Assembly: GCA_963825635.1 (NCBI GenBank)
Contig: CAWGTU010000003.1
Location: forward strand, 459,812 to 523,811
Direction: 5' to 3'
Source of the DNA: an uncultured Actinomycetes bacterium
Lineage (GTDB): Bacteria; Actinomycetota; UBA4738; HRBIN12
DNA length: 64,000 nt
The translations under genes and the position numbers were made by a program. This document shows, one piece after another, positions 1-18,054 of the stretch (position 1 is its first letter; the number at the start of each line of letters is the position of its first letter). The notes beneath the pieces were generated by a model. That model had not been told where the DNA came from. It saw nothing but the letters and a program-made list of their open reading frames with translations, and searched no databases.

Positions 1-1716
1 GACTGGCCCACGTGCTTCGGCAGCTGGGTGCCCCGGTGGGAGTACCACACGCTGATCGAGTACGTGCACCGGGCGCTCGGGGTGATATCGGGGCTCCTCG
101 CCGTGGCCCTCGCCGTCGTCGGCGTGACCGAGCTCGTGCGCGCCCGCCGTGGGCGGCCGACCACGACGCCACGCGGAGCGGTCTGGATGGCGGTCGCCCT
201 CGTGCCCCTCTTCGGCGTGCAGGGGGCCCTCGGCGGCGCGGTCGTGAACAGCGAGCTCGATCCCGCCGTGGTCACGCTGCACTTCGGGCTCGCGATGATC
301 GTGCTCGGCGTGCTGGTGGCGGCCACGACGCTGGCGTTCGAGGGCGACGACCGAGCCGGAGACCGCAGGTACGCGAGGCTCGCCGTGATCACGGCGGTCG
401 CGACGTTCGCGTTGCTCCTCGTCGGCACGTACGTGCGGGCAGAGGGCGCCGGGCTCGCGTTCCGGGACTGGCCGCTGATGGGCGGCCGCCTGGTGCCGTC
501 GTTCGGGCCGCGCGGCGCCGCCGAGATGTTCGCGCACCGGGTCCTCGCGATCCTCGTCGCCGCCCTCGTGCTCTGGCTGAGCGTTCGGGCACGCACGATG
601 CGCGAGCGCTCCGACCGCCTGGTCAGGCTCTCCACGCTGGCCGGCGTGCTCTTCATCGGCCAGATCGCGGTCGGGGGCGTCAACGTGATCACCGAGCTCT
701 CGACCTGGCCGCGCGCCCTGCACGTGGGCTTGTCGGCGGCCATCTGGGCCACCGTCGTCGCGCTCGCGGTGGTCGCACGCCGCGAACCCGTCGTGGGCAG
801 GGGCACCGGCGCCGCCGACGTGGCCGAGGCGCCCGAGGTCGCCGAGCCTGCCTCGCTCGGCGACACGGTCACCGCCTACGTCCGTCTCACGAAGCCGCGC
901 ATCATCGTGCTGCTGCTGATCACGACCGTGCCGGCGATGGTGCTCGCCGAAGGCGGGTTCCCGTCGCTGTGGCTCGTGCTCGCCACGCTCGTCGGGGGTT
1001 CACTCGCCGCCGGGGCCGCGAACGCGATCAACATGTACCTCGACCGCGACATCGACGAGGTGATGCGACGGACCCGCAGCCGTCCCCTCCCGGCGCATCA
1101 GGTCCCCGCCGAGCGAGCCCTCGCGTTCGGGTTCTGGCTCGGGGCCTTCTCGTTCCTGTTCCTGAGCGTGACCGTGAACGTGCTCGCGGCGACGCTCTCG
1201 CTCGCGGCGATCGCCTTCTACGTCGTGGTGTACACGATGTGGCTGAAGCGCTCGACGACGCAGAACATCGTGATCGGCGGGGCGGCCGGCGCCGCGCCGG
1301 CCCTGATCGGATGGGCCGCGGTGACCGGCTCGCTCGCCCTGCCCGCCTGGATCCTCTTCGCGATCGTGTTCGTCTGGACCCCACCGCACTTCTGGGCGCT
1401 GGCGCTGCGGTTCAGCGGCGACTACGCGGCCGCGGGCGTGCCGATGCTGCCGGTGGTCAAGGGTGAGGACGAGACGCGACGCCAGATCTTCCTGTACTCC
1501 CTCGTGCTGTTCGGCACGACGTTGCTGCTCGCGCCCACGGCCGGCCTCGGTCCGATCTACCTCGCCACGGCGGTGGTGCTCGGGGGGGTCTTCGTCTACC
1601 GCGCGCTCGTGCTGTGGCGAACGGCCAGCGCCGACCGTTCGTGGCGGCTCTTCAGCTACTCGATCGTCTACCTCGCCGCCCTGTTCGGCGCCGTCGCGCT
1701 CGACGCCGTCGTCTAA
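1..1716 (+). CDS. ctaA/ctaB: Fused heme A synthase (CtaA-like N-terminal half with four HxxxA/HR helices) and protoheme IX farnesyltransferase (CtaB/heme O synthase C-terminal half); 5' end lies outside the window
   Basis: ORF 28..1716 has no upstream stop in frame to position 1. C-terminal half carries the UbiA/CtaB motifs LTKPRII and NMYLDRDIDEVMRRTRSRPLP. N-terminal half carries paired His-containing TM helices typical of heme A synthase. Confidence 0.75.
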   Translation, partial: DWPTCFGSWVPRWEYHTLIEYVHRALGVISGLLAVALAVVGVTELVRARRGRPTTTPRGAVWMAVALVPLFGVQGALGGAVVNSELDPAVVTLHFGLAMIVLGVLVAATTLAFEGDDRAGDRRYARLAVITAVATFALLLVGTYVRAEGAGLAFRDWPLMGGRLVPSFGPRGAAEMFAHRVLAILVAALVLWLSVRARTMRERSDRLVRLSTLAGVLFIGQIAVGGVNVITELSTWPRALHVGLSAAIWATVVALAVVARREPVVGRGTGAADVAEAPEVAEPASLGDTVTAYVRLTKPRIIVLLLITTVPAMVLAEGGFPSLWLVLATLVGGSLAAGAANAINMYLDRDIDEVMRRTRSRPLPAHQVPAERALAFGFWLGAFSFLFLSVTVNVLAATLSLAAIAFYVVVYTMWLKRSTTQNIVIGGAAGAAPALIGWAAVTGSLALPAWILFAIVFVWTPPHFWALALRFSGDYAAAGVPMLPVVKGEDETRRQIFLYSLVLFGTTLLLAPTAGLGPIYLATAVVLGGVFVYRALVLWRTASADRSWRLFSYSIVYLAALFGAVALDAVV

Positions 1717-2324
1717 CCCTCGCGGTCATCGGCCGCGAGCAGCTCGTCGATCAGCCCGGAGAGCTCGTCGGCGCCAGTCTCGCCGTACACCACGTACCGC
1801 ATCGTGCCCGAGGCGTCGACCAGGTAGGTGTCGGGCAGGAACGGGAAGCCGAGCGTCGACGCCGTGCGTCCGTCGGGGTCGAACAGGCTCTGGTACGGCA
1901 CCGCGAAATCCTCGATCCAGCGTTCCGCCTTGGCTCGGTCGTCGCGGTAGTCGACCCCGACGAAGGCCACGCCCCGATCCTCGTACTCGGCCTGGACCTG
2001 CAGCAGGGCGGGCTGCTCGCGCCGACACGGCCCGCACCACGTGGCCCAGACGTTCACGACGAGCACCGACCACTCCATCGAGCGCGTATCGATCGGGGGC
2101 CCGACGACCGCCTCACCCTCGAGACCGGGGAAGGGCTCGTCGAGCGTGGCCACGCCACCCTCTTCGCGCGGGTCGGTCGTCGGACGCAACGCGAACGCCG
2201 CGAGGCCGATCGCGATCACGACGATCGCGCCGACGACCGCGACGCGCCCGAGCCGAGGGCGGTGACCGGACGGTTCCTCGGGGGCCTGCGGGCCGGTCGC
2301 CGGAGCGTCGGATGCGGACGTCAG
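1713..2324 (-). CDS. TlpA/ResA-like membrane-anchored thiol:disulfide oxidoreductase (thioredoxin fold, WCGPC motif)
   Basis: WATWCGPCRRE active site with a thioredoxin-like fold and one N-terminal TM helix. No canonical start lies between the cupredoxin stop and the TM helix, so the start (~2324, possibly CTG overlapping the upstream TGA) is uncertain. The long Arg-rich N-terminus in the ORF track was rejected. Confidence 0.6.
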   Translation of the reverse strand: MTSASDAPATGPQAPEEPSGHRPRLGRVAVVGAIVVIAIGLAAFALRPTTDPREEGGVATLDEPFPGLEGEAVVGPPIDTRSMEWSVLVVNVWATWCGPCRREQPALLQVQAEYEDRGVAFVGVDYRDDRAKAERWIEDFAVPYQSLFDPDGRTASTLGFPFLPDTYLVDASGTMRYVVYGETGADELSGLIDELLAADDREG

Positions 2325-3628
2325 GTGACCTCGACCGTGCCGATCATCGTCGGATGCACGTCGCAGCGGAACTCGTAGGTCCCGGCCTCCATCGGCGGGA
2401 TCGTGTAGTCGACCGTCGCCGGCCCGTCGATGAGCTCGCCCTGGAACAGCGCGGTGTCGCCGTCGTAGATCGAGACGTTGTGCGGGCCCGCGACGTCGAC
2501 GGGGTCCCGATTGTCGAACGTGAGGGTGACCTCGGAGGCCGCCGGCCACGTGAGCGTCGTCGGATCGAACGCGGTTCCCTCGGCTGCGACCGAGGCGGCT
2601 GCCGTGCCCTCGGCGGTTGCACCGCCGCCTTCGTCGGGCGGCTCCTCGCCGCCCTCGCCCGAGCCGCCGCCACCGCCGTCACCCCCACCGCCGTCGCCGC
2701 TCACGATGACGGTCCCGCTCATGTTCGGATGCACGTCGCAGTGGAAGTAGTACTCCCCCTCGGGGAGCGGCGGGATGTCGTAGACCACGCTCACCGGCCC
2801 CGTCACGATCTCGCCGACGAAGAGCGACTCGTCGAGCGTGTCGTCGGTGTAGATCGCGATGTTGTGGGGCGTGCCGGCGTCCTGGTTGTCGAGCGTGATC
2901 TTCGTGGGCGTGTCGGGAGGCAACTCGATCGTGTCGGTGTCGAACGCGATGTCGGCGGCCACGACCGTGATCCCCTCGCCGCCGCCACCGTCTCCGCCAC
3001 CTTCGGGCGAGGCCGTCATCGTGCCCGTCATCGTGGTCGGGTGGACCTCGCAGTTGAAGAAGAACTCACCCTCGGTCAGCGGCTCGACGGCGTAGTCGAC
3101 CGTGGCAGGCCCCGTGATGATCTCGCCGCGGAACAGCTGCGGCGCCTCGGCGTCGGCGCCGTCGTAGATCACGACGTTGTGCGGCACGGCCGGGTCCGCG
3201 TTCTCGAACGCGAGCGTGAACGGCACATCGCTCGGCACCGACACCGCATCGGTCGAGAACCCGGTGGTGGCCGCCCCTTCGGGCGCGGCCAACGCGACGA
3301 CCGCCTCACCGCCCGGGCCGCCGCCCTCTCCCTCTTCCTCGAGCGGAGCCGCAACCACGGCGAGCCCTCCCGCGAGCATCGCGATGCCGGTCATGGCGGC
3401 GACCATCGAGAACAGCGTGGAACCCGTCACGCGCTTCCTCGAGGCGACCCACGCCGCGACCACCACGATGCCGACAGCCGCCACGAGAGCGACCACGGTC
3501 GCCGCGTTGTGCGAGATCGCGAGCAAGACCCGCGAGAAGCCTGCGAGCACCAGGCCGATCACGGCCAGCACCCCGATCGGCATCAGGATCGGCAGCAGCA
3601 GGCTCTGCCGGTTCTTGCCCTCACTCAT
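2321..3628 (-). CDS. Membrane-anchored triple-cupredoxin (three tandem type-1 blue-copper domains, each with His/Cys/His/Met ligands) joined by Gly-rich linkers
   Basis: Two N-terminal TM helices. Three repeats carry PHN...C(E/D)VHP(T/N)M motifs: PHNVVIY..NCEVHPTTM, PHNIAIY..HCDVHPNM, PHNVSIY..RCDVHPTM. Confidence 0.75.
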   Translation of the reverse strand: MSEGKNRQSLLLPILMPIGVLAVIGLVLAGFSRVLLAISHNAATVVALVAAVGIVVVAAWVASRKRVTGSTLFSMVAAMTGIAMLAGGLAVVAAPLEEEGEGGGPGGEAVVALAAPEGAATTGFSTDAVSVPSDVPFTLAFENADPAVPHNVVIYDGADAEAPQLFRGEIITGPATVDYAVEPLTEGEFFFNCEVHPTTMTGTMTASPEGGGDGGGGEGITVVAADIAFDTDTIELPPDTPTKITLDNQDAGTPHNIAIYTDDTLDESLFVGEIVTGPVSVVYDIPPLPEGEYYFHCDVHPNMSGTVIVSGDGGGGDGGGGGSGEGGEEPPDEGGGATAEGTAAASVAAEGTAFDPTTLTWPAASEVTLTFDNRDPVDVAGPHNVSIYDGDTALFQGELIDGPATVDYTIPPMEAGTYEFRCDVHPTMIGTVEVT

Positions 3629-3667: not shown

Positions 3668-4498
3668 TCATCGGCCGAGCTCCGCACCGATCTCTCGTTG
3701 CACGTTCTGGTACGCCGACCTGTCGAGGCCGTCACGCTGTTCCTGCTCGAACCATCGGAAGAAGATCACCGCGATCACTCCCCAGAGCAGCAGCCCCCCG
3801 ACGATCTTCATGATGAGCCCCGCGACCAGCTGATCGGTCAGGGCCGACATGCCCCAGATGCGGGGGAACGTCGCGTAGACCGGGTACAGGGGCGTGTGAC
3901 CGAACGTCAGGAAGGACGCCGGGATCGTGGGCGCGAGCGACTGCAGGAACAGGTAGATCATCTGTCCCGGTGGCGAGAGCGCCGGCATCTCGGGCAGCGG
4001 CGACATCACCGGCCACCACATCAGCAGCGCCGAGGTCACGATCAGCACGTGGAGCGAGAGGTGGATCGCCTCCGACCCCACCGACGCTTCGACGATCGTG
4101 GGCCAGTGCGTGAACAGCAGCACGCCGTTGAAGACCGCGAGCGCGATCAGCGGCCGCGTGAAGAATCGGAACACACGCCGAACGGGCGGGGGGGCGAGCA
4201 GCGCCCGGAGCATCCACGCCGGCATCCCCGCGATCAGCAGAGGTGCCGCGATCAGCGTGAACAGCAGGTGCTGGGTCATGTGCATGAGGTAGAGGTAGCC
4301 CTCGGCGAGGTCGTGCACCGGCCAATCGGCGCCCAGCCATAGCACACCCATCCCCGAGAGGAAGAGCGCCTTCGTGCGTCGCGGTGTCCCCTCGCCGGTG
4401 GTGTCGGCGTGGCGGCGGGCGGCGATCAGGTAGGCCGCGACGATCGAGCCGAACAACAGCCAGACGTCGGGATGCAGGTGCCAGGGAGGGAGCTGCAC
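3668..4498 (-). CDS. ctaG: Caa3-type cytochrome oxidase assembly factor CtaG-like polytopic membrane protein
   Basis: ~276 aa with 6-7 TM helices, sitting directly downstream of ctaF in the cta operon. Assignment is by position and topology. Confidence 0.5.
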   Translation of the reverse strand: MQLPPWHLHPDVWLLFGSIVAAYLIAARRHADTTGEGTPRRTKALFLSGMGVLWLGADWPVHDLAEGYLYLMHMTQHLLFTLIAAPLLIAGMPAWMLRALLAPPPVRRVFRFFTRPLIALAVFNGVLLFTHWPTIVEASVGSEAIHLSLHVLIVTSALLMWWPVMSPLPEMPALSPPGQMIYLFLQSLAPTIPASFLTFGHTPLYPVYATFPRIWGMSALTDQLVAGLIMKIVGGLLLWGVIAVIFFRWFEQEQRDGLDRSAYQNVQREIGAELGR

Positions 4499-4505
4499 CG
4501 ACGCC

Positions 4506-4871
4506 TCACTCCACCACGAAGACGCCGAACGAGATCAACACGATCAGGTAGAGCGTGGCCGCTCCCGCGAGCCCCATCACGAAGAACCGCGCGTACGTGA
4601 GGCTGTCGAACCTCAGGTGCATGAACCACATCACGACGAGGGCGAACTTGATGATCGACAGCACGATCAGGGTCGGCACCAGGGCCCCGCCGACGTCGAC
4701 GTAGTAGGTGGCGACCTCGAGCGCCGTGAGCACGGCGAGGATCACGCCGATGCGGATGTACTCCTTGGCGCTCGGGTGCTCGTGATGCGGCGCCTGGGCC
4801 TCACGGGGGTCGGGCATGTCCCGTGTGCCGAGTTCCTCCTGGAACCGCGTCTCCGTCTCGGACACCGTCAT
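4506..4871 (-). CDS. ctaF: Cytochrome c oxidase subunit IV (prokaryotic CtaF type)
   Basis: Small protein with two TM helices and a KFALVVMWFMHL motif, between ctaE and ctaG. Confidence 0.65.
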   Translation of the reverse strand: MTVSETETRFQEELGTRDMPDPREAQAPHHEHPSAKEYIRIGVILAVLTALEVATYYVDVGGALVPTLIVLSIIKFALVVMWFMHLRFDSLTYARFFVMGLAGAATLYLIVLISFGVFVVE

Positions 4872-4877
4872 CGCCTC

Positions 4878-5516
4878 CTAGACCGGCGCCGGAGCGGGGG
4901 TCGGGATCAGGTACACGACCGTGAAGATGATGATCCACACGATGTCGACGAAGTGCCAGTACAGGCCCACCATCTCGACCGGGAACGCGGCATCGTCGGG
5001 CAGGCGATCGGCCGCCGAGAAGCCGACGAGCGAGAGGAGCATCAGGATGCCGAACGTCACGTGCACACCGTGGAAGCCCGTGAGCACGTAGAAGGTCGTG
5101 CCGAACAGGTTCGTCGAGATCGACAGACCCTCGTCGTAGAAGACCGTGAACTCGTAGACCTGTCCCGCCACGAACGTGAGGCCGAGCAGGGCGGTGGACA
5201 GCAGCCACAGCCGCATGCGGGAGACGTCGCGCTTCTGGGCCGCCGCGAGCGCCAGGACCATCGTCAGCGACGAGGCCAACAGCACGAACGACGACACCGA
5301 CGTGTAGGGGATGTCGAAGACGTCGTCCGGGTAGGGCCCGACGTCGCTGGCACCGCGATACAGCACGTAGGTGCTGATCAACGCGCCGAACAGCATGCAT
5401 TCGGAGGCGAGGAACACCCACATCGCGAGCTTCGTGTTCGGCAATCCGGTGGAGGTCGCGTGCTCGTCGTGCGCCGGGGCCGCGCCGGATGGTGGGGTGA
5501 TCGCGAGGTCGGCCAC
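4878..5516 (-). CDS. ctaE: Cytochrome c oxidase subunit III
   Basis: Conserved subunit III helices (FFxxGFHGxHV-like: VLTGFHGVHVTFG; WHFVDIVW). Confidence 0.9.
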   Translation of the reverse strand: MADLAITPPSGAAPAHDEHATSTGLPNTKLAMWVFLASECMLFGALISTYVLYRGASDVGPYPDDVFDIPYTSVSSFVLLASSLTMVLALAAAQKRDVSRMRLWLLSTALLGLTFVAGQVYEFTVFYDEGLSISTNLFGTTFYVLTGFHGVHVTFGILMLLSLVGFSAADRLPDDAAFPVEMVGLYWHFVDIVWIIIFTVVYLIPTPAPAPV

Positions 5517-5519
5517 CGT

Positions 5520-7397
5520 CTACTCCTCCGCCACCGAGGGCTCGAACGCCCACCCGTAGAAGCCCACCAACGCGATGAGGGCGCCGAGCCCGAACAGCCA
5601 CCACGAGTAGAGCACGCCGTAGCCGATGATCGGCAGGCCGAGGCTCGAGACGATCGGCCAGTACGAGGGGCTGGGCAGGTGGATCGCGTGGCCGCCCCCG
5701 TGTGCATCGTCGTGGGCGTCGGAGGCGCCCGCCTGCGCGGGCACGAGCCGGCCGGTGCGTTCGTCCTCCACGTACTTGCGATGCCAGAACTCGTCGAGCG
5801 AGTGCACGGTCGGGATCTCGTCGAAGTTGTGCACGGGCGGCGGGCTGGTGGTCATCCACTCGAGCGTGCGGGCGTCCCACGGATCCTCGACGATCTCGGC
5901 CCGGGGCTTCAGATGCGTGCGGATCACGTTCACGATGAACATCAGCACCGCCAGGGCGATCAGGAACGCACCCACCGTGGAAACCTGGTTCCAGAACGTG
6001 AGACCCAGGGTCTCCGGATACGTGTACTCGCGCCGGATCATGCCCTGCAACCCGAGGATGTGCATCGGTCCGAAGGCCAGGTTGAAGCCGATGATGAGGA
6101 GCCAGAACTGCAGCTTGCCGGCCGCCTCGCCGAGCCGACGCCCGAACGCCTTCGGCCACCAGTAGTAGAACCCCGAGAAGATGCCGAAGATCGCGCCGCC
6201 GAACAGCACGTAGTGGAAGTGGGCGACGATGTAATAGGTGTCGGTCTGTTGGTAGTCGCTCGGCACGATCGCGTGGGTCACGCCCGACAGCCCGCCGATC
6301 ACGAACATCGCCACGCCGCCGACCGAGTACAGCATCGCCGAGGTGAACCGGATGTCACCGCCGTACATCGTGCCCATCCAGTTGAAGATCTTGATGCCGG
6401 TCGGCACGGCGATGATCGCCGTCGAGACGCCGAACGCCGTGTTGGCGACCGGCCCGAGGCCGGCCGCGAACATGTGGTGGGCCCACACGCCGAACCCGAT
6501 GAACCCGATCGCGATGCCGGAGAAGACGACGAACTGGTAGCCGAAGAGCGGCTTGCGGCTGAACACCGGCAGGACCTCGCTGAAGATGCCGAACGCCGGC
6601 AGGATCAGGATGTAGACCTCCGGGTGGCCGAACAACCAGAAGAGGTGTTGCCACAGGATCGGATCTCCCCCGCGGGTGGGATCGAAGAACGCGGTGTCCC
6701 ACCGGCGATCGAACAACAGCTGGAACAGCGCGATCGTGATGATCGGCAGGGAGAAGACGAGCAGGAACTGCACGACCAGCCCCATCCACACGAACACGGG
6801 CATGCGGAACAAGGTCATGCCGGGCGCGCGCATGTTGATCACCGTGACCGCGAGGTTCACGGCGCCGGTGGTCGACGCCACGCCGGTGATCAGCAGGCCG
6901 ATCGCATAGAACGTCATGCCGATCGAGGGATCGGTCGTGGAGTTCGGCGCGTACCCGAACCAGCCGCCGTTCGGCGCTCCGCCTAGGAGGAAGCTCGAGT
7001 ACAGGAAGATCCCCCCGAACAGGAAGGCCCAGAAGCTGTACGCGTTGATGCGAGGGAAGGCCACGTCGCGCGCGCCGATCATCAACGGGATCAGGTAGTT
7101 GAACAGCGCCGACGACATCGGCATCACGAACAGGAAGATCATCGTGAGTCCGTGCATCGTGAAGATCTGGTTGTACTCGTCGGCGTTCAGCAGGGTGCTG
7201 TCGGGCTGCGCCAGCTGAGCCCTGATCAGCAGGGCCTCGAGACCCCCGATGATGAAGAAGAAGAACGCGACGACCCCGTACATGATGCCGATCTTCTTGT
7301 GGTCCACCGTGGTGAACCAGCTCCAGAAGCCCGTGATCGCCGTGGGCCGTCGTAGCAGCCCCCGGCCCCCGGTCGAAGGAACGCTCACGCTCGCCAT
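5520..7397 (-). CDS. ctaD: Cytochrome c oxidase subunit I (heme-copper oxidase catalytic subunit) with a C-terminal two-helix extension
   Basis: HHMF, WAHHMF and GHPEVY motifs with 12+ TM helices; 625 aa. Confidence 0.95.
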   Translation of the reverse strand: MASVSVPSTGGRGLLRRPTAITGFWSWFTTVDHKKIGIMYGVVAFFFFIIGGLEALLIRAQLAQPDSTLLNADEYNQIFTMHGLTMIFLFVMPMSSALFNYLIPLMIGARDVAFPRINAYSFWAFLFGGIFLYSSFLLGGAPNGGWFGYAPNSTTDPSIGMTFYAIGLLITGVASTTGAVNLAVTVINMRAPGMTLFRMPVFVWMGLVVQFLLVFSLPIITIALFQLLFDRRWDTAFFDPTRGGDPILWQHLFWLFGHPEVYILILPAFGIFSEVLPVFSRKPLFGYQFVVFSGIAIGFIGFGVWAHHMFAAGLGPVANTAFGVSTAIIAVPTGIKIFNWMGTMYGGDIRFTSAMLYSVGGVAMFVIGGLSGVTHAIVPSDYQQTDTYYIVAHFHYVLFGGAIFGIFSGFYYWWPKAFGRRLGEAAGKLQFWLLIIGFNLAFGPMHILGLQGMIRREYTYPETLGLTFWNQVSTVGAFLIALAVLMFIVNVIRTHLKPRAEIVEDPWDARTLEWMTTSPPPVHNFDEIPTVHSLDEFWHRKYVEDERTGRLVPAQAGASDAHDDAHGGGHAIHLPSPSYWPIVSSLGLPIIGYGVLYSWWLFGLGALIALVGFYGWAFEPSVAEE

Positions 7398-7416: not shown

Positions 7417-8526
7417 TCACGTCAGGCTGTACAGGTAGGCGACGAGGGCATCGATCTCCTCGTCGGTGAGTTGGTAGTCGGGCATCTTCGACCCGAGCTT
7501 CTCGGCGTCGGGGTTCGCGAGCCACGCCGCCAGCGCCTCACGGTCCTCGGTCGACCAGTTGCAGCCGGCGAAGCATGTGTGTGCCGGGTCGGCGAAGTGC
7601 GACAGGTTGGGTGCCGCGGCGCCTCCCGCGTCGCCCACGGCGTGACAGGCCGTACACGCCCCGCGTCCGTCGCTCAACGGGTTGAGGAACAGCTCCTCTC
7701 CCTGCCGGGCGAGAGGGTCGGTCGGACTCGGCGCCAGGGTCTGCTGGTTCTCGACCCACGCCTCCCACTCCGCCGGATCGAGCGCCACGACCTCGAGCTT
7801 CATCCGTCCGTGCTGCAGCCCGCAGAACTCGGCGCACTGCCCCGTGTAGGTGCCGGCCTCGTCGACTCGGAATTGGATGTGGTTCGTGCGGTTCGGCACG
7901 ACGTCCTGCTTGCCGAAGAGCTGGGGCACCCAGAACGAGTGGATCACCTGGAAGTCGGGATCGCCGTTCGCATCCTGGGCGCCGCCGCCCCTCGCCTCGA
8001 GCGAGAGGTAGACGTCGCGGCCGGTGGGCACCACCATCGTGTCGGCGATCGTGATCGGGCGATCCCAGTCGGTGACCATGTCCTCGTCGGGGTAGGAGAA
8101 CCCCCACCACCACTGGTACCCCTCGACCGTGATGTTGAGCGCACCGTCTTCCGGCGGGCGAGCCAGCTCCCAGATCAACGAGACCGTCGGCACCATCACC
8201 ACGGCGAGCACGACGGCGGGCGCGATCGTCCAGCCGATCTCGAGCCGCGTGTTGCCGTGCGTCTGCCGCGGCATGACGTCGCGGCCCTTGCGATGACGGA
8301 AGCGCAACGCGATGTAGAGGATGCCGCCCTGCACGATCACGAAGACGCCGACGGCGACCCAGAACACGGGAACGAACAGGTCCTTCTGTTGCTTGGCGAC
8401 GTCGCCGACGGGCTGCAGGGTGTCCTGGCCGGCGTTCGGAGCGCACGCCGCGAGCAGCAGTCCCGCGGCGACGAGGCCGAGGGTCCACAGCGCCTTCTTC
8501 CGCACGATCAGTCTCGCTCCTCGCAT
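7417..8526 (-). CDS. ctaC: Cytochrome c oxidase subunit II with a fused C-terminal cytochrome c domain (caa3 type)
   Basis: CuA motif (HSFWVPQL ... CAEFCGLQHGRM) plus a C-terminal CTACH heme c site. Lipoprotein-like signal with Cys. Confidence 0.9.
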   Translation of the reverse strand: MRGARLIVRKKALWTLGLVAAGLLLAACAPNAGQDTLQPVGDVAKQQKDLFVPVFWVAVGVFVIVQGGILYIALRFRHRKGRDVMPRQTHGNTRLEIGWTIAPAVVLAVVMVPTVSLIWELARPPEDGALNITVEGYQWWWGFSYPDEDMVTDWDRPITIADTMVVPTGRDVYLSLEARGGGAQDANGDPDFQVIHSFWVPQLFGKQDVVPNRTNHIQFRVDEAGTYTGQCAEFCGLQHGRMKLEVVALDPAEWEAWVENQQTLAPSPTDPLARQGEELFLNPLSDGRGACTACHAVGDAGGAAAPNLSHFADPAHTCFAGCNWSTEDREALAAWLANPDAEKLGSKMPDYQLTDEEIDALVAYLYSLT

Positions 8527-8613: not shown

Positions 8614-9573
8614 TCACTTCGCATAGCTGTGGAGGCCGACGATCCAGAGGTTCACGGCGTAGTACGTGATCAACAACGAGACGAAGCCGACCAGCGCGAT
8701 CACGGCGGCACGGCGGCCCTTCCAGCCGCTCGTGGCCCGAGCGTGCAGGTAGCCGGCGAAGATCACCCAGGTGATGAACGACCACGTCTCCTTGGGGTCC
8801 CAGCCCCAGTACCGACCCCACGCCTCCTGGGCCCAGATCGCGCCGGCGATCACCGCGAACGTCCAGATCGGGAACGCGACGGCGATGATGCGATAGGCGA
8901 GCCGGTCGAGCCCGGCGGCGGACGGCACGAGCCGGCGCGTCGCCGGCCGCGTCTCGGCGTCCTCGGCCGAGTCCGGCACGAGATCGGCCGGCACGTCGGG
9001 GTCGTCGAGGTCGATCGCGCCACCCATGATGGGCGGCGGGGTCTGCGCGCTCATCGACTCGAGCCGCCTGCGCTCGCTGCGGTCGACCACGAGGTAGGCG
9101 ATCGTCGCGATGCCGCCGAGCGCGAAGAGCGACGACCCCCAGATCGCGGCCTGCACGTGGATCTTGATCCAGTACGAGTTGAGCGCCGGCACGAGCGGTC
9201 CGGGACCCACGTAGAGGAACGACACCGCCACCGCCATCGTGAGCACGCTGAACATCAGGGCGAACCCGGTCAGCGAGCGCACCCGGTACACGCCCTCCAC
9301 GACGACCAAGGCCCCCACCACGACGAGCAGGGCGAGCAGCGACGAGTACTCGTACATGTTGCCCCACGGCACCCGGTCGGCCGCCAGTCCTCGCGCGACG
9401 ATCGAGACGAGGTTGGCCGCGACGCCCACGACCGCCACCGCCCGCGACACCTGCCAGATGGCCTCGCGCTTGAAGGCCAGGAAGACGAAGTACCCGACCA
9501 TCGCGGCGAGGTAGGCGAAGAGGGCCACGTTGAACGCGTCGTTCGAGATGCGTGCCCACTGCAGGTCGGTCAC
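8614..9573 (-). CDS. ccsA: Cytochrome c-type biogenesis protein CcsA/ResC (system II heme handling, W-rich motif)
   Basis: WGWDPKETWSF WWD motif and conserved His residues; polytopic. Confidence 0.85.
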   Translation of the reverse strand: MTDLQWARISNDAFNVALFAYLAAMVGYFVFLAFKREAIWQVSRAVAVVGVAANLVSIVARGLAADRVPWGNMYEYSSLLALLVVVGALVVVEGVYRVRSLTGFALMFSVLTMAVAVSFLYVGPGPLVPALNSYWIKIHVQAAIWGSSLFALGGIATIAYLVVDRSERRRLESMSAQTPPPIMGGAIDLDDPDVPADLVPDSAEDAETRPATRRLVPSAAGLDRLAYRIIAVAFPIWTFAVIAGAIWAQEAWGRYWGWDPKETWSFITWVIFAGYLHARATSGWKGRRAAVIALVGFVSLLITYYAVNLWIVGLHSYAK

Positions 9574-11192
9574 GGCGTCTGCACCCTCTCTCGATCCTCC
9601 GGCTCTCGATCTTCCGGCTCTCGATCCCCCCGCCCCGGCACCGAGGCGCCGCCGGCCGCCGAGGAGAGGGCGTCGACCAGGCGGGCGAACTCCTCCTCGA
9701 ACTGCGGCTTGCGCTGCAGCGCGAACCCGCCGACGCGCATCGTCGACCCGTCGCCGTCGGGATCGGCGCGCACCCAGACCTTGCGTCGGGAGCCGTACAA
9801 CGCGGGCAGCAGTCCCACGAGGATGAGGATAGCGGCGGCCAGCACCAGGGGCACCCCTGGGTCGCGCGCCACCTGGAACACCGAGTACTGCCGGAGCTCG
9901 GGGAACGAGATCGTGGAGCCCGACCCTTCCTCGCCGACGGCCAGGGCCGCGCCGTCGGCGAGGTCGGCGGTGCGCTCGGCGCCGACGATGCCCGACGAGA
10001 CCTCGTCGAGCACCGTCGAGTCGAGGCGGTTCGTCGCGAGGTCACCGATCACGCCCTCCCAGACCGTGAAGCGGATGATCGGGTCGAACTCCACCAGCAT
10101 CGCCTGCGGCACCGCTCCGGGCTCGAGCAGCGCCGCGAACGCCCGGCTGTCGGGCCACAGCTCGAGCTCGATCGCGCGGTCGAGGCCGCCGGCGCCCGCG
10201 CCGGGGAGCTTGACCACGCCGCGCCACGGCATCGCGAACTCGACGACGCCCTCGGGCGCAGGGTCGCGATCCATCACCACGGGGCCCGACGAGACGACCT
10301 CGCCGTCGACCGTGACCTGCACCACGGGCGCCCACCCGAAGCTCGACTGGTAGATCCAGAGCCCCTCGACCTTGGCCGGGTGGTTCACCCTGATCGACTC
10401 CTCGCGCAGCAGCGAGCCGTCGGGCTCGAGCACGTCGACCTCGGAGACGAAGTCCATCGGCTGGCCCGTGTTCGCGAAGTCGCTCCGGAAGTCCTTCAAG
10501 TGCAGACCGATGCCCGTGAAGTCGTCGAAGAAGCGCCCGGCACGGATCGTGCCGTCGTAGTTCGCCTCGGCGTCGACCCACGTCTGCCCCTCGACCACCG
10601 CGATCAGCCCGCTGAATCCGGTGCCCTTGCCGTAGATCACGCCGGCCAGCAGCAGGATGAACGCCCAGTGGAACGCGAGGCTCCCGACCTCCCGGGCGAG
10701 CCCCTTCTCCGCCGCGAGCGCGGGCCGATCCGGGTCACGCGCGACGCGGAACCGGCGCCGGCGCAGCGTGCGGCGCGCCGCCTCGATCGCCGCGTCGGGA
10801 CCGGCGGCGACCGCCACCTCCGCGTACCGCGGGAACGCGTCGATCTCGCGGGCCTGCATCGGCGGCGTGCGCACGTTGCGCCAGAGCGCCCTGGTCCTCG
10901 GCACGAGACAGGCGACGAGCGAGACGAAGAGCAGGGTCACGAGCAGCACGAACCACCACGACCCGAAGACGTCGAACAGCCCCGCCCGGTCGAAGAACGT
11001 GCCCCAGAACGGGTGGTCGGCCCGGTACTGCAGCACCCGCTCGGGGGTGTTCGGCCACTGAGGTAGCAGCGACCCGGCGACCGAGGCCAGGCCGATCATC
11101 AGCAGCAGGATGAGCGCCGTGCGCATCGAGCGCAGGGTCCGCCAGACGATGGCGACGGACTGGCGGAGCGTCAGGGACTGGGAAGAGGACAT
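9570..11192 (-). CDS. resB: Cytochrome c biogenesis protein ResB/Ccs1
   Basis: ResB-family N-terminal TM helices followed by a large periplasmic domain; 4-bp overlap with ccsA. C-terminus ends in a low-complexity EDREP repeat. Confidence 0.8.
   Translation of the reverse strand: MSSSQSLTLRQSVAIVWRTLRSMRTALILLLMIGLASVAGSLLPQWPNTPERVLQYRADHPFWGTFFDRAGLFDVFGSWWFVLLVTLLFVSLVACLVPRTRALWRNVRTPPMQAREIDAFPRYAEVAVAAGPDAAIEAARRTLRRRRFRVARDPDRPALAAEKGLAREVGSLAFHWAFILLLAGVIYGKGTGFSGLIAVVEGQTWVDAEANYDGTIRAGRFFDDFTGIGLHLKDFRSDFANTGQPMDFVSEVDVLEPDGSLLREESIRVNHPAKVEGLWIYQSSFGWAPVVQVTVDGEVVSSGPVVMDRDPAPEGVVEFAMPWRGVVKLPGAGAGGLDRAIELELWPDSRAFAALLEPGAVPQAMLVEFDPIIRFTVWEGVIGDLATNRLDSTVLDEVSSGIVGAERTADLADGAALAVGEEGSGSTISFPELRQYSVFQVARDPGVPLVLAAAILILVGLLPALYGSRRKVWVRADPDGDGSTMRVGGFALQRKPQFEEEFARLVDALSSAAGGASVPGRGDREPEDREPEDRERVQTP
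9587..9632. repeat. Three tandem copies of a 15-bp unit (ctctcgatcNNccgg) encoding the EDREP-EDREP tail of ResB
   Basis: Direct reading of the sequence at 9586-9632. Confidence 0.7.
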
Positions 11193-11962: not shown

Positions 11963-12023
11963 GGTTCCTCCGGACGACTGTCTTGCGTGGACCGTGGACC
12001 TGCAGCGATAGTAGCCGGGGAGC

Positions 12024-12042
12024 TTGTGAAACGATTCACGAG
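12024..12042. promoter_or_regulatory. Rex operator (ROP)-like inverted repeat TTGTGAA-acga-TTCACGA, shared between divergent ccdA and the cytochrome b operon
   Basis: One mismatch to the TTGTGAAnnnnTTCACAA consensus. A rex gene lies in the window at 17002..17685. Confidence 0.65.
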
Positions 12043-12077
12043 TGTCGGACGGTCGTCGGGCGCACGCGACACATGTC

Positions 12078-12083
12078 TATAAT
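12078..12083 (+). promoter_or_regulatory. Perfect TATAAT -10-like hexamer ~50 bp upstream of the first gene of the cytochrome b operon
   Basis: AT-rich hexamer in a 70%-GC background. No clear -35, as is common in actinobacteria. Confidence 0.4.
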
Positions 12084-12135
12084 CGCCCCGCCTCAGGGAG
12101 ACTCGCCCACAGAGACGCTAGGGACCCAGGAGCGT

Positions 12136-12564: not shown

Positions 12565-12963
12565 ATGCCCTACACCAAGACCGAGGTCGACATCCACGAG
12601 GACTACACCGTGGAAGCCGTCGACCCCGCGTGGCTCGCTCACGGGGTCAAGTCCCCCAAGCACCTGATGCTCGACCCCGACAACTGCATCCTCTGTCGCG
12701 CATGCGAGGACGTCTGCCCGTGGAACTGCATCTACATGATGTCGCCGGGCATCGTCTCGGGAGCCGCCGAGCACGTCGTCGGCGACGAGGTGGACAACGC
12801 GACGGCGGTCTTCGTGGTCGACGACAACGCCTGCACGCGCTGCTCCGTCTGCGTCGACCGCTGCCCCACCGACACCTTGTACTATGCGCGACTGCCCGAG
12901 GGCTCCAAGGGCGGGCAGCGCACGATGGCCGAGGTTCCCGCGTCGCAGGCCGAAGCCGTATGA
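12565..12963 (+). CDS. 2x[4Fe-4S] dicluster ferredoxin
   Basis: Two CxxCxxCxxxCP motifs (CILCRACEDVCP; CTRCSVCVDRCP). Confidence 0.85.
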   Translation: MPYTKTEVDIHEDYTVEAVDPAWLAHGVKSPKHLMLDPDNCILCRACEDVCPWNCIYMMSPGIVSGAAEHVVGDEVDNATAVFVVDDNACTRCSVCVDRCPTDTLYYARLPEGSKGGQRTMAEVPASQAEAV

Positions 12964-13012
12964 GAGCGCTCGCGCTCATGCAGCCGAAGGCGGTAGCGCG
13001 AAGGGAGAGACC

Positions 13013-13783
13013 GTGAAGCTGAAGCCGCCGTCACCCGGCGACCTGGGTGATCGGATCAGGGAGACCGAGGTCTGGAAGTCGATCTTCCGGCCCGGCTCGA
13101 TCTTCCGCAAGGGCTACAAGGACACGTCGCGCGATCGCGCGCTCGCGACGATGAACAACGTGCTCTACCACCTGCACCCGGTGAAGGTGAAACGGCACGG
13201 GCTGAAGCTGACGTACACGTTCTGTCTGGGCGGGCTGTCGTTCTTCCTGTTCATCCTGCTGACGATCACCGGCATCTTCCTGATGTTCTTCTACCGGCCG
13301 ACCGCCGACATCGGCGGCGCCCAGGCGTTCGCCGACATGCAGAACATCCGCACGTCGGTGTTCTTCGGCGACCTGGTGCGCAACCTGCATCGGTGGGGCG
13401 CCCACCTCATGGTCTTCAGCGTGACGCTGCACATGGCGCGCGTCTTCTACACCGGCGCGTACAAGCCGCCGCGCGAGTTCAACTGGGTCGTCGGCGTGAT
13501 CCTGCTCTTCCTCACGCTGGGACTGTCGTTCACGGGCTACCTGCTGCCGTGGGACCAGCTCGCGATCTGGGCGGTCACGGTGGGCACGTCGCTCGCGGGG
13601 TATTCGCCGTTCATCGCGAAGCAGGCGAACTTCCTGCTGCTCGGCGGCGTCGTGGTCGGCCCCGAGACGCTGCTCCGCTGGTACACGCTGCACGTGATCG
13701 GGCTGCCGTTCGTGTTGGTGATCTTCCTCGCGGTGCACTTCTGGCGCATCCGCAAGGACGGCGGCATCTCGGGACCGCTCTAG
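13013..13783 (+). CDS. Cytochrome b6-type (short, N-terminal half of cytochrome b) with four heme-ligating His residues
   Basis: GTG start with a GGGAGA RBS. His pairs in helices B and D (HRWGAH...TLHMAR; TLHVIG...AVHFWRIR). Confidence 0.85.
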   Translation: MKLKPPSPGDLGDRIRETEVWKSIFRPGSIFRKGYKDTSRDRALATMNNVLYHLHPVKVKRHGLKLTYTFCLGGLSFFLFILLTITGIFLMFFYRPTADIGGAQAFADMQNIRTSVFFGDLVRNLHRWGAHLMVFSVTLHMARVFYTGAYKPPREFNWVVGVILLFLTLGLSFTGYLLPWDQLAIWAVTVGTSLAGYSPFIAKQANFLLLGGVVVGPETLLRWYTLHVIGLPFVLVIFLAVHFWRIRKDGGISGPL

Positions 13784-13801
13784 AGGGATCCAGGGGAAGA
13801 C

Positions 13802-14239
13802 ATGGCCAAGGAAGACACCCCGCTCGACCAAGGAGTCTTCGACTCCACGCTCGAGGCGGAGCTCGCCAAGGGCACCGACCGGCGCGTCGCCGAAGGGCGA
13901 GCGCGCTCGGCGGCGGTGCGAGCCTTCCGCGCCGCCAACCCCGAGGAGGCCGCGAAGCACGAGGCCGCAGGCGCGAAGCCGGCCGCTGCTGCAGGAGCTG
14001 GAGCCGGGGCCGCAGCGGCAGCCCCTGCCGCTGCTTCCGCCGCGAGCGCTGGCGCGGCGGCCGGCGCCGCCCCGTCGCCGTCGCGGCCGCCTCGGTCACC
14101 ACACCGGTTCGCGAGGCGCCGCTGCCCACCGGCAACGTGCCGACGCCGAAGAAGGGCGCGGAGGACAAGCACCGATTGCTCGCGCTCGTGCCCCCCGAGG
14201 GCATCCAGCGCGTGGAACGCGAACAGGGCGACCGCGTGA
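13802..14239 (+). CDS. Ala-rich ORF, either a separate small protein or an N-terminal extension of subunit IV that is out of frame
   Basis: ATG 19 bp after the cyt b6 stop with an RBS-like GGGGAAG. The first ~60 aa look protein-like, then an Ala/Gly-rich linker, then Arg-rich junk. The subunit IV reading frame continues in frame 0. Confidence 0.3.
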   Translation: MAKEDTPLDQGVFDSTLEAELAKGTDRRVAEGRARSAAVRAFRAANPEEAAKHEAAGAKPAAAAGAGAGAAAAAPAAASAASAGAAAGAAPSPSRPPRSPHRFARRRCPPATCRRRRRARRTSTDCSRSCPPRASSAWNANRATA

Positions 14240-14655
14240 ACGTCTGGCCCCACCTGCTGATCGAAGAGTTCGTCGCGATGTTCATCCTGCTCGCGGGCAT
14301 GACGCTCTTCTCCACGTTCATCAACGCGCCGCTGCGCGAGCTCGCGAACCCGAACCTCACGCCGAACCCGTCGAAGGCACCCTGGTACTTCCTGGGTCTG
14401 CAGGAGCTGCTGCGCTACTTCCACCCGATGGTCGCGGGCATCACGATCCCGACGTTCATCCTGGTCGGGCTCGCCGCGGTCCCCTACGTCGACCGCAACC
14501 CGAGCAACAAGCCGGGCGACCGCAAGATCGCGATCACGCTGATGACGATCCTCTTCATGTTCGGCGGGGTGCTCACGATCATCGGCTCGTTCTTCCGCGG
14601 GCCCGGGTACAACTGGGTGTGGCCGTGGGCGCAGGGGGTGTTCTTCGAACTGTGA
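14137..14655 (+). CDS. Cytochrome b6-f subunit IV-like (C-terminal half of cytochrome b, PEWY-like APWYF motif)
   Basis: NPSKAPWYFLGLQELLRYF motif plus three TM helices. A GTG start at 14137 is the minimal model; the true start may lie upstream via the 13802 ORF. Confidence 0.7.
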   Translation: MPTPKKGAEDKHRLLALVPPEGIQRVEREQGDRVNVWPHLLIEEFVAMFILLAGMTLFSTFINAPLRELANPNLTPNPSKAPWYFLGLQELLRYFHPMVAGITIPTFILVGLAAVPYVDRNPSNKPGDRKIAITLMTILFMFGGVLTIIGSFFRGPGYNWVWPWAQGVFFEL

Positions 14656-15392
14656 GCACGCTGCTCTCCGGTTCCTCGGCCAGTCTCTTGGGCATCTCCA
14701 CGCCGCTCGTCGCCGCGATCCTGGCCTTCGTGGTGCTCGACATCTTCGCGATCGTCTTCGGCCTCTCGTTCGTGCGCGCGAACCGCGCCGCCCGCGAGAC
14801 CGCCGACGGCCAGATCGAGGTGGCCGGCAAGCCGGTCAAGTCGCTCTCTCGTCGCGACTTCTTCCGCCGCTCGCTGCTGACCTCGCTGATCGTCTTCGGC
14901 GCGCAGTTCGGCGGCGCGACGATCGCCTTCCTCTGGCCGAACCTGAAGGGCGGGTTCGGGTCGTTGGTCGCGGCGGGCAACATCGACGACATCAAGGCCG
15001 AGATCGACGACGCCGGCGTGGCCTACAACGGAACCGGCCGGTTCTACGTGGTCGAGTACAGCGGCTCACCGAGCGGTGACGTCGACTACGCGACCCAAGG
15101 CGTCACCGCCGAGGGCATCATGCCCCTGTACCAGCGGTGCGTGCACCTGGGGTGCCGCGTGCCCTACTGCGGCTCCTCACAGTGGTTCGAGTGCCCCTGC
15201 CACGGCTCGAAGTACAACGGCGCCGGCGAGTACAAGCTCGGGCCCGCGCCCCGAGGCATGGACCGGTTCCAGCTCGAGATCATCGACGGCAGCGTGGTGG
15301 TCGACACGAGCGAGGTGATCCTCGGACCGCCGCGCGGCACCGACACCGTCGACCAGCCACCGCAGGGTCCGTTCTGCGTGGCGACCGGATAG
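14652..15392 (+). CDS. Rieske [2Fe-2S] protein with a twin-arginine signal and N-terminal TM helices
   Basis: CVHLGC and CPCHGS Rieske boxes; SRRDFFRRS Tat motif; GTGA overlap with the subunit IV stop. Confidence 0.9.
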   Translation: MSTLLSGSSASLLGISTPLVAAILAFVVLDIFAIVFGLSFVRANRAARETADGQIEVAGKPVKSLSRRDFFRRSLLTSLIVFGAQFGGATIAFLWPNLKGGFGSLVAAGNIDDIKAEIDDAGVAYNGTGRFYVVEYSGSPSGDVDYATQGVTAEGIMPLYQRCVHLGCRVPYCGSSQWFECPCHGSKYNGAGEYKLGPAPRGMDRFQLEIIDGSVVVDTSEVILGPPRGTDTVDQPPQGPFCVATG

Positions 15393-15411
15393 GAGAGGAA
15401 CGGCCACGACC

Positions 15412-16119
15412 ATGCTCGCAGCCACGAACACCGCAGGCATCGTCCTGCTCGTGCTCGGCGCGATCTTCGTGCTCGCGGCGGGAGCCGCGCTCTACTTCCG
15501 CAGCCGCCAGAAGGAGCAGCCGCTCGACATCCCGCGGGGGATGCGCCCCGGCCCGAGCGACGCCGCCCTCGAGACCCCGCTCCTGCAGAAGCTGCAGGGC
15601 TGGGGGGTCGTGCTCGTCGCGTTCTTCGTGGTCTTCATCCCCTACAACTGGCTGCGTGAACCGAGCGAGAACCTGCGCCAAGAGGAGGAGTTGCTGACGC
15701 TCGCGTTCGACCGCGGCGAGCTCGCCGTGCAGAACTTCAGCGAGGAGAACCAGCTCGGCGTGGGCTGCGTGCGCTGTCACGGCCCCGAGCTGCGCGGCGG
15801 CGTGATCCAGTCGGGTGACACGCTCGCCTATCCGCCGAACCTCACGAACATCTGCGCGGGGCCCTTCGGCGATCCGCCGCACAACACGATCTTCTCCCAG
15901 GAGGACATCTACCAGGTGCTCGAGGAGGGCCGCAACGCGATGCCCTCGTGGAGCATCCGCTACCAGGGCGCCCTGAACGACCAGCAGATCAACGACCTGG
16001 TCGTGTACCTGGTCGAGATGAGCTCGGAGAACGTGCCGTTCGAGGACAACGTCTGCCTGAACCCCGAGGCGTCCGATCGCGCGCTCGCCGAGACCGACCT
16101 GAACCCGAGGGACCCGTAG
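15412..16119 (+). CDS. Membrane-anchored monoheme cytochrome c
   Basis: N-terminal TM helix and a CVRCH heme-binding motif; GGAGAGGAA RBS. Confidence 0.85.
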   Translation: MLAATNTAGIVLLVLGAIFVLAAGAALYFRSRQKEQPLDIPRGMRPGPSDAALETPLLQKLQGWGVVLVAFFVVFIPYNWLREPSENLRQEEELLTLAFDRGELAVQNFSEENQLGVGCVRCHGPELRGGVIQSGDTLAYPPNLTNICAGPFGDPPHNTIFSQEDIYQVLEEGRNAMPSWSIRYQGALNDQQINDLVVYLVEMSSENVPFEDNVCLNPEASDRALAETDLNPRDP

Positions 16120-17997: not shown

Positions 17998-18054
17998 CGA
18001 CGCAGCCTATCCGGCGTCACCGGCGGCCACCGGGTGTCTGGGAGGATACGGCGC

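Follow-up and report, generated by a model that had tools for sequence, protein, structure and literature searches.

Here, we describe a membrane-anchored triple cupredoxin that is encoded within the caa3-type cytochrome oxidase gene cluster of an uncultured Actinomycetes bacterium (GTDB lineage Bacteria; Actinomycetota; UBA4738; HRBIN12; assembly GCA_963825635.1). The gene lies on a stretch of 64,000 nucleotides (nt) of contig CAWGTU010000003.1 (positions 459,812 to 523,811), referred to below as the window. Its product of 435 amino acids (aa) carries an N-terminal anchor of three transmembrane helices followed by three domains (D1, D2 and D3). Judged from alignment and structural model, these are real cupredoxin domains with complete type-1 His/Cys/His/Met sites, and copper occupancy is predicted for each site.

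Our favored reading, which we hold with moderate confidence, is that this chain would act as an electron carrier into the caa3 oxidase; we are less confident about the specific donor and about the roles of the individual domains. The protein is probably a bound accessory subunit of the oxidase. Oxidase-tied electron transfer is supported because the gene keeps its place next to ctaG in every one of 80 related loci, and because relatives are found naturally fused to a subunit-IV-like module or to COX2.

Copper domains, linkers and membrane anchor

The annotated ATG start of the gene is right since homologues keep the N-terminus MSEGKNRQSLLLPIL; a GGAG is found about 10 nt 5' of this ATG. Pfam analysis matches Cupredoxin_1 (PF13473) to three stretches of the protein (E=2e-34, 118 bits against a 27-bit cut-off) and also returns Copper-bind (PF00127, E=3e-11). 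The four ligands can be located in each domain (Table 1), with an Asn directly after the first ligand His in D1, D2 and D3, as in classical cupredoxins. In an alignment of 100 full-length homologues (46–91% identity), all 12 ligand columns are invariant with the sole exception of one Met-to-Lys replacement in D2, and the His-Asn pairs are likewise kept. The three ligand Cys are the only Cys of the protein, none being found before residue 193, and six of its eight His are type-1 ligands.

An AlphaFold2 model built on the same alignment (mean predicted local distance difference test (pLDDT) score of 84.6) consists of three transmembrane helices, three separate beta-sandwich domains with pLDDT above 90 and three linkers with pLDDT below 50. 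Modeled alone, D2 reaches a pLDDT of 98. An initial annotation, made from the sequence of the window, had described three tandem copper domains with complete ligand sets joined by Gly-rich linkers. Both parts of this description hold: no domain lacks a ligand, and the linkers, which are acidic, contain 43–64% Gly.

At the domain level, profile matches in the PDB are led by auracyanin A (E=1.8e-10) and include plastocyanin (E=1.9e-9) and amicyanin (E=5.5e-9), all of them single-domain electron carriers. Foldseek searches with the D2 model likewise return auracyanins (template modeling (TM) score of 0.85) and amicyanin (TM-score of 0.72). Several more specific classes were tried and rejected. 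The protein is not an amicyanin orthologue, as TIGR02657 scores 39.2 bits against a cut-off of 110.2 and covers only part of D3, nor a plastocyanin orthologue, as TIGR02656 scores 29.9 bits against a cut-off of 87.85; the label 'plastocyanin' given by JGI is generic. A halocyanin-type lipid anchor is rejected since there is no lipobox Cys (the first Cys is residue 193), three transmembrane helices being found instead. Finally, a PCuAC or Sco chaperone is rejected because, in regular expression searches of the protein, the PCuAC motif H(M)X10MX21HXM (PMC9145763) and the motif CxxxC are both absent, and the Cys are type-1 ligands only.

When the full-length model is used as query, Foldseek ranks NirK, laccases and other multicopper oxidases first with E-values down to 5e-16, as would be expected if the protein were a three-domain enzyme of the laccase or NirK type. 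These matches have TM-scores of about 0.2 and root-mean-square deviations of 15–22 Å, and they arise from the chaining of three independent cupredoxin domains, which are parted by disordered linkers and do not pack into one body. Moreover, because the HxH motif is absent and only two His of the protein are not type-1 ligands, no trinuclear or type-2 site is possible. The multicopper oxidase is therefore refuted, and we give it practically no weight.

Linker lengths differ along the chain and stay within limits across the family. The median is 12 aa (range 8–16) between the third transmembrane helix and D1, 10 aa (range 5–18) between D1 and D2, and 32 aa (range 19–53) between D2 and D3. Mean column conservation in the 100-homologue alignment is 0.40–0.55 for the linkers and 0.65–0.72 for the copper domains.

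The initial annotation had placed two transmembrane helices ahead of the copper domains. This was its only factual error, as both hydropathy and the AlphaFold2 helices give three. Basic residues are found at the N-terminus of the anchor and in the loop between the second and third helices. From these features, we infer an N-in, C-out topology, which would place the copper domains outside the cell because the number of anchor helices is odd. The first helix closes with the conserved motif F-S-R-(V/I)-L-L, and its mean column conservation (0.77) is above that of each copper domain.

Compared to Pfam, the anchor alone gives no meaningful family match. A phmmer search with anchor residues 1–95 against 1.84 billion cluster representatives returned 158 clusters (50% identity), and the lengths of these clusters lie near 200, 320 and 440 aa, fitting one, two and three cupredoxins after the anchor. 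A cupredoxin is present in every inspected anchor-matching sequence that is long enough to show the C-terminal region. Single cupredoxins with azurin-like loops C-x2-P-G-H-x3-4-M are found behind the same three-helix anchor in P0217, P0241 and P0265. Because the same anchor precedes these azurin-loop cupredoxins, it seems to be a reusable module for differing cupredoxin types. Furthermore, since the conservation of its first helix exceeds that of the copper domains and since it carries one, two or three cupredoxins, the sequence comparison argues that the anchor is more than a passive tether.

Gene position, domain number and fusions to oxidase subunits

Searching a protein database yielded over 1,159 clusters of homologues, the best 120 of which are mostly full-length with 45–98% identity. 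Their labels are generic, such as 'plastocyanin' (JGI) or 'cupredoxin domain-containing protein [Actinomycetota bacterium]' (NCBI). The exact window protein has no match in the assembly index; the closest protein (P0001) shares 98% identity, and the locus L001, from a metagenome-assembled genome (MAG) of Danish soil or sediment, 96%. The initial annotation had considered three-domain cupredoxins in cta operons to be rarely described. This stands as far as the open-access literature is concerned, in which no description of this cupredoxin family was found and only AcoP/Cup, sulfocyanin and halocyanin surfaced as precedents; in databases, the sequences are abundant under their generic names.

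When one genome was scanned for each GTDB species, relatives turned up in at least 541 of them. Synteny and domain counts were derived from 80 of these species-level loci, nearly all of which are labeled as uncultured Actinomycetota MAGs, many from soil catalogues. The odd labels are one Solirubrobacterales and one Planctomycetaceae, the latter probably reflecting a binning error.

The cupredoxin gene stands directly after ctaG in all 80 loci, and ctaCDEF is found upstream wherever the contig extends. The typical order is ccdA-resB-ccsB-ctaCDEFG-cup-tlpA. More specifically, a thioredoxin gene lies 3' of the cupredoxin gene in most of the 80 loci, followed by a convergent ctaAB gene, and in most of the longer loci ccdA-resB-ccsB and a divergent ferredoxin-cytochrome b6 are placed as in the window. 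Because the gene order holds across the 80 loci, we consider this arrangement a conserved respiratory island and not the result of a chance neighbor.

In the window itself, Pfam and NCBIfam assignments agree with the initial annotation in placing the gene between ctaG and a TlpA-like thioredoxin gene, in one block with ctaCDEF. Spacings between genes from ctaC to the cupredoxin gene are 3–39 nt (3–19 nt from ctaC to ctaF). No terminator-like sites were found on the minus strand of the cta-cupredoxin block, and promoter and terminator scans are uninformative in DNA of 70% GC, so that the shared transcription unit is argued from spacing and synteny. No known annotated oxidase subunit corresponds to the gene; by its co-location and co-orientation with ctaCDEFG, it is a component of the caa3 gene cluster.

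The number of copper domains varies between relatives. Among complete open reading frames (ORFs), 33 contain three type-1 motifs, 42 contain two, and a single one, probably an assembly error, contains one. D1 forms its own orthologous group, with the loop C-x2-H-x3-M in most members, while D2 and D3 are paralogues that share 57% identity within a protein, versus 44% to D1. In two-domain relatives, the second domain groups with D2 and D3 is absent. Since these two-domain forms also keep the short spacing between D1 and D2, D3 on its long leash can be regarded as an add-on.

About 30 of the anchor-matching clusters contain an extra N-terminal module of about 135 aa before the anchor and the cupredoxin. 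With a profile of this module, the top three PDB matches are mycobacterial 'cytochrome c oxidase polypeptide 4' (CtaF) at E=2.7e-4 to 1.5e-3 and near full length. PF12270 (Cyt_c_ox_IV) matches 7 out of 10 fusion members at E<=1, the best at E=1.7e-5 with 24.8 bits against a gathering cut-off of 26.9, and a further relative (P0280) has a precomputed PF12270 match. This similarity, below the Pfam gathering score, suggests that the fused module resembles actinobacterial oxidase subunit IV. In three contigs the fusion gene comes directly after COX1-COX3, and in a fourth it follows COX3, which is where subunit IV would be encoded; two more fusion contigs show the same position with upstream genes that have no Pfam call. 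On its 3' side is a similar thioredoxin gene, a gene for COX2 with a cytochrome c domain, or both. No paper on these subunit-IV-like fusions was found in the open-access literature. One of the contigs (L085) carries two tandem oxidase gene sets, the first without its own COX2.

Searching with a subunit-IV-like fusion protein revealed another type of fusion, in which COX2 ends in a C-terminal cupredoxin in place of cytochrome c (P0299 and P0300). The best 120 clusters obtained with P0300 (67–100% identity) all contain COX2_TM, COX2 and Cupredoxin_1, and every one with an organism name is labeled Candidatus Limnocylindrales. The CuA motif is present in 119/120 and the type-1 Cys-His-Met loop in 120/120, accompanied by His-Asn in 119/120; none of the 120 contains CxxCH. 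The fusion gene is followed by COX1-COX3 (locus L086, 320-1456), and the cupredoxin domain of P0300 aligns closely with D2 of the window protein. Because a homologous cupredoxin sits where caa3 oxidases carry cytochrome c, electron transfer from type-1 copper to CuA can be argued directly. What looks like a 'cupredoxin-aa3' oxidase family in Ca. Limnocylindrales was not the subject of any paper found in the open-access literature.

Proposed electron transfer and alternative roles

We propose the following mechanism. The three-helix anchor would dock against the oxidase in the membrane, and the acidic copper domains would face outward from what is presumably a monoderm cell. Electrons would reach the copper domains one at a time from the adjacent b6-type complex, through its membrane-anchored monoheme cytochrome c, and would be handed on to CtaC, via its c-domain and/or CuA. 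D1 and D2 would remain membrane-proximal; with its long leash, D3 could widen the capture radius or add a carrier copy. In this scheme, copper would do the work for which Bacillus has small membrane-bound cytochromes c and classical Actinobacteria have the dihaem QcrC. The assignment of the monoheme cytochrome c as donor is drawn from the gene neighborhood. As the initial annotation had noted, the b6-type complex has a monoheme cytochrome c and the oxidase a cytochrome c domain of its own; each contains a single CxxCH, and these two are the only respiratory haem-c sites in the 64-kilobase window.

The initial annotation went further in proposing a mobile electron shuttle. An electron-transfer cupredoxin tied to the caa3 oxidase is supported by synteny and the natural fusions, and the route from the b6-type complex to the oxidase is suggested by the neighborhood only. 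The term mobile is probably wrong: conservation of the anchor equals that of the copper domains, and the subunit-IV-like fusions suggest a docked protein of which only the copper domains swing on leashes.

Several observations weigh against an electron carrier between the two complexes. CtaC and the bc-type complex each have their own cytochrome c, so an intermediate carrier is not strictly required. The donor is assigned by neighborhood, and the survey for other carriers, Sco and PCuAC covered just the window. The cupredoxin gene is also flanked on both sides by genes of the assembly type (ctaG and the thioredoxin gene). In addition, the extracellular domains and the c-domain of CtaC are all strongly acidic (isoelectric point of about 4), and there is consequently no charge complementarity for docking. 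As for the fusions, the match to subunit IV is sub-threshold in a sequence rich in transmembrane segments, where spurious similarity arises more easily, and the fusion proteins come from other lineages and are distantly related, such that transferring the inference to the window protein is an assumption.

The presence of cytochrome c in both complexes, with which a shuttle between them is not strictly needed, would also fit a chain that serves as an entry point for an extracytoplasmic donor, as do rusticyanin, AcoP and sulfocyanin. The donor could be Fe(II), a wall-associated or secreted dehydrogenase or another small carrier, with the leashes reaching outward and electrons passing straight to the oxidase. 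Iron oxidizers indeed have cupredoxins in or beside cox clusters (Cup/AcoP in the rus operon, sulfocyanin with oxidase subunit II in Ferroplasma), the D3 leash is long (19–53 residues), and amicyanin, the best relative in both sequence and fold, draws electrons from a dehydrogenase. We nevertheless find this role unlikely. Neither a dehydrogenase nor an outer electron conduit is conserved beside the gene, the neighbors of which serve the oxidase, haem A synthesis, cytochrome c maturation and the b6-type complex. Most relatives come from soil and other environmental MAGs, among which no sign of acidophilic iron oxidizers was seen, and the loop type together with the Met axial ligand hints at no unusually high potential.

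The flanking Caa3_CtaG and TlpA/ResA-like thioredoxin raise another option, namely that the protein handles copper or assists assembly of CuA or CuB together with these two neighbors. No Sco- or PCuAC-like gene was seen within the window, and the fold of PCuAC is cupredoxin-like (PMC9145763). The window protein itself lacks the PCuAC motif and the CxxxC of Sco. It has instead the rigid, buried His/Cys/His/Met site and His-Asn pair of electron-transfer cupredoxins, invariant over 100 homologues, and mature COX2 proteins exist that permanently include a homologous domain. It is not obvious why a chaperone domain should be duplicated in tandem, and the thioredoxin may just as well serve as ResA to the ccdA-resB-ccsB genes of this block. 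An assembly factor is, in our view, quite improbable.

The strongly conserved anchor and its fusion to a subunit-IV-like module could also be explained by a structural or stabilizing accessory subunit, the copper sites of which have no catalytic electron-transfer role in the main pathway. AcoP is reported to interact with cytochrome c oxidase, and it also stabilizes this enzyme. In the family studied here, the second-sphere Asn of each domain and all 12 ligands are kept by purifying selection, which makes sense only if the copper sites work, and a purely structural role therefore appears very improbable.

Returning to the electron carrier, a more far-reaching version can be formulated, which we put forward only tentatively and consider possible at best. 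The protein would be an anchor-docked, stoichiometric subunit whose copper 'wire' of two to three type-1 sites bridges the b6-type complex and the caa3 oxidase in a respiratory assembly new to Actinobacteria, replacing the dihaem QcrC that is regarded as obligatory for their III-IV supercomplex, with D3 as a collecting arm. The anchor would then represent a general cupredoxin plug for haem-copper oxidases, either free or fused to subunit IV, and bypassed in the COX2 fusion.

The respiratory gene block and known tethered carriers

Features of the gene, its neighbors in the window and the fusion genes on other contigs are compiled in Table 1.

Table 1. Coordinates of the cupredoxin gene, its parts, neighboring genes in the window and related fusion genes (positions refer to the window unless a locus is named).
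Feature	Position	Strand	Description	Basis
Membrane-anchored triple type-1 cupredoxin gene	2321..3628	−	435 aa, ATG start, stop 2321-2323	ORF list, Pfam
N-terminal anchor	3347..3628	−	residues 1-94; three transmembrane helices at about 11-35, 40-62, 69-93	hydropathy, AlphaFold2 helices
Linker 0	3305..3346	−	residues 95-108, PLEEEGEGGGPGGE; acidic, Gly-rich	AlphaFold2 pLDDT <50 (disordered), composition
Cupredoxin domain D1	3008..3304	−	residues 109-207; ligands H150/C193/H196/M200; loop C-x2-H-x3-M	
Linker 1	2975..3007	−	residues 208-218, PEGGGDGGGGE; short leash	
Cupredoxin domain D2	2699..2974	−	residues 219-310; ligands H255/C297/H300/M303; amicyanin-like loop C-x2-H-x2-M	
Linker 2	2603..2698	−	residues 311-342; long leash rich in Gly/Pro/Glu	AlphaFold2 pLDDT ~40
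Cupredoxin domain D3	2324..2602	−	residues 343-435; ligands H383/C422/H425/M428; loop C-x2-H-x2-M	
TlpA/ResA/DsbE-like membrane thioredoxin (WCGPC)	1713..2324	−	directly 3' of cupredoxin gene; low end exact, start inferred	
Caa3_CtaG, Bacillus-type	3668-4498	−	39-nt gap to cupredoxin gene	Pfam, NCBIfam
ctaF	4506-4871	−	COX4_pro	Pfam, NCBIfam
ctaE	4878-5516	−		Pfam, NCBIfam
ctaD	5520-7397	−		Pfam, NCBIfam
ctaC	7417-8526	−	CuA and C-terminal cytochrome c domain (caa3 type)	Pfam, NCBIfam
ccsB	8614-9573	−	system II cytochrome c maturation	Pfam
resB	9570-11192	−	system II cytochrome c maturation	Pfam
ccdA	11222-11962	−	system II cytochrome c maturation	Pfam
Rieske/cytochrome b6-type operon	12565..16119	+ (divergent)	2x[4Fe-4S] ferredoxin, cytochrome b6, subunit-IV-like protein, Rieske, monoheme cytochrome c	
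Membrane-anchored monoheme cytochrome c	15412-16119	+	235 aa, one CxxCH	
Subunit-IV-like::three-helix anchor::one cupredoxin	L081 2375-3418; L082 1056-2273; L083 1727-2740; L085 10001-11065			

The thioredoxin gene next to the cupredoxin gene has no ATG, GTG or TTG from 229 nt 5' of the cupredoxin stop to its own transmembrane helix. In relatives, the stop of the cupredoxin gene and the start of the thioredoxin gene overlap as ATGA or GTGA; in the window (2319-2324) and in its closest relatives, including L001 and L002, the overlap reads CTGA. The thioredoxin start is thus probably the CTG that overlaps the cupredoxin stop, suggesting a CTG start or translational coupling. Scores do not separate a TlpA (CuA assembly) from a ResA (cytochrome c maturation) identity for this thioredoxin. 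Convergent with the block is a fused haem A and haem O synthase gene (COX15-CtaA plus UbiA, CtaA::CtaB; 562 aa; 28-1716, plus strand), the stop of which overlaps the thioredoxin stop, and the fusion is kept in related loci.

At the other end of the block, the first gene of the b6-type operon encodes a 2x[4Fe-4S] ferredoxin of 132 aa (12565-12963, with 12884-16119, plus strand) and overlaps the longest cytochrome b6 ORF. The ferredoxin gene adjoins cytochrome b6 in every related locus long enough to show that position; for a bc-type complex, an iron-sulfur ferredoxin is an unusual subunit. The operon is flanked by two ORFs (11983-12552 and 16120-16863, both plus strand) with coding-like composition and no Pfam match, the first of which has a hydrophobic segment, and these may encode extra subunits of the b6-type complex. 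The N-terminus of CtaC shows a lipobox-like LLLAAC behind a basic hydrophobic leader, from which subunit II may be a lipoprotein; Bacillus oxidase subunit II is also a lipoprotein. Just past the respiratory island are a Rex-like redox-sensing regulator gene (Put_DNA-bind_N plus CoA_binding; 17002-17685, minus strand) and genes for a sigma-70-family factor and an RskA-type anti-sigma factor (17767-19355, plus strand). Searching the whole window with Rfam gave no matches, and hence no rRNA or tRNA by which the organism could be placed.

Tethered cupredoxin carriers to terminal oxidases are already established in halocyanin, sulfocyanin and AcoP/Cup. Auracyanin is likewise an established tethered cupredoxin carrier. 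What is new here is the tandem build of two or three domains on leashes of conserved length, the dedicated and conserved three-helix anchor with a fixed slot after ctaG in the caa3 operon, and the type of host, namely uncultured Actinomycetota of a large lineage in which a b6-type complex takes the place of the classical dihaem bcc. In textbook Actinobacteria, electrons pass from complex III to complex IV via a dihaem cytochrome c (QcrC) inside an obligate supercomplex. The lineage described here is mostly soil-dwelling and pairs a b6-type complex with a caa3 oxidase, to which it always adds the tethered blue-copper chain (80 loci inspected, from at least 541 genomes with a relative).

If the chain is indeed the carrier, respiration in abundant soil bacteria would be tied to copper supply, and many database entries named 'plastocyanin' or 'cupredoxin domain-containing protein' could gain a specific role. 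The family would also offer a natural case in which type-1 copper sites are arrayed in tandem and the flexible leashes that carry them have kept their length. The anchor and both kinds of fusion (subunit IV and COX2) represent concrete constructs with which the docking of cupredoxins to haem-copper oxidases can be studied.

Among known systems, halocyanin (Natronomonas pharaonis; CbaD fusion in Halobacterium) resembles the window protein in being a membrane-attached type-1 copper protein that is proposed to link a b6-like bc complex to a haem-copper oxidase, a link supported for both by a gene fusion with a small oxidase subunit. Halocyanin is a single-domain protein. It is archaeal and, according to the title of the paper describing it, lipid-anchored, whereas the window protein is bacterial, has a three-helix anchor, belongs to a family with two or three tandem domains and is encoded inside a caa3 operon. 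Halocyanin has been proposed as the one-electron carrier to haloarchaeal oxidases, with the halocyanin/CbaD fusion taken as evidence (PMC8305020). Sulfocyanin (SoxE, Sulfolobus/Ferroplasma) is similarly a membrane-bound blue copper protein associated with a terminal oxidase; unlike the window protein, it has a single domain, belongs to another cupredoxin subfamily and occurs in archaeal acidophiles. SoxE is encoded with the SoxM supercomplex genes. The sulfocyanin family (PF06525) gives a faint overlapping match in some homologues only. Pairing of sulfocyanin with oxidase subunit II has been described (PMC10654088).

AcoP/Cup of Acidithiobacillus ferrooxidans, encoded in the rus-cox cluster, interacts with cytochrome c and the oxidase (PMC4059628). 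Like the window protein, it is a cupredoxin encoded in the same cluster as an aa3-type oxidase. It differs in having a single domain with a green copper site, in being a periplasmic membrane-associated protein of a diderm iron oxidizer, and in its gene position before coxB, the window gene being located after ctaG. No detectable specific homology between AcoP and the window protein was seen. The auracyanins (Chloroflexus/Roseiflexus) share a membrane-tethered type-1 cupredoxin with the window protein but are single-domain proteins with longer loops CxxxxHxxxxM. Their partners are alternative complex III and the photosynthetic chain. Amicyanin shares the short loop C-x2-H-x2-M with His-Pro and has a similar fold (TM-score of about 0.72, 24–26% identity); in contrast to the window protein, it is soluble, single-domain and a partner of methylamine dehydrogenase.

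In terms of proposed function, the nearest counterparts carry haem instead of copper. Bacillus c550/c551, Rhodobacter cy and QcrC do the job that is proposed for the window protein, a tethered relay between complexes III and IV, with unrelated folds. They are tethered one-electron relays in cells without a free periplasmic pool. In terms of homology, both the COX2::cupredoxin and the CtaF-like::anchor::cupredoxin proteins contain a homologous cupredoxin encoded in cox clusters, the second also with the same anchor; they differ from the window protein in having one domain that is covalently joined to an oxidase subunit. Should the chain prove to be the carrier, it would represent a bacterial multi-domain counterpart of archaeal halocyanin and sulfocyanin.

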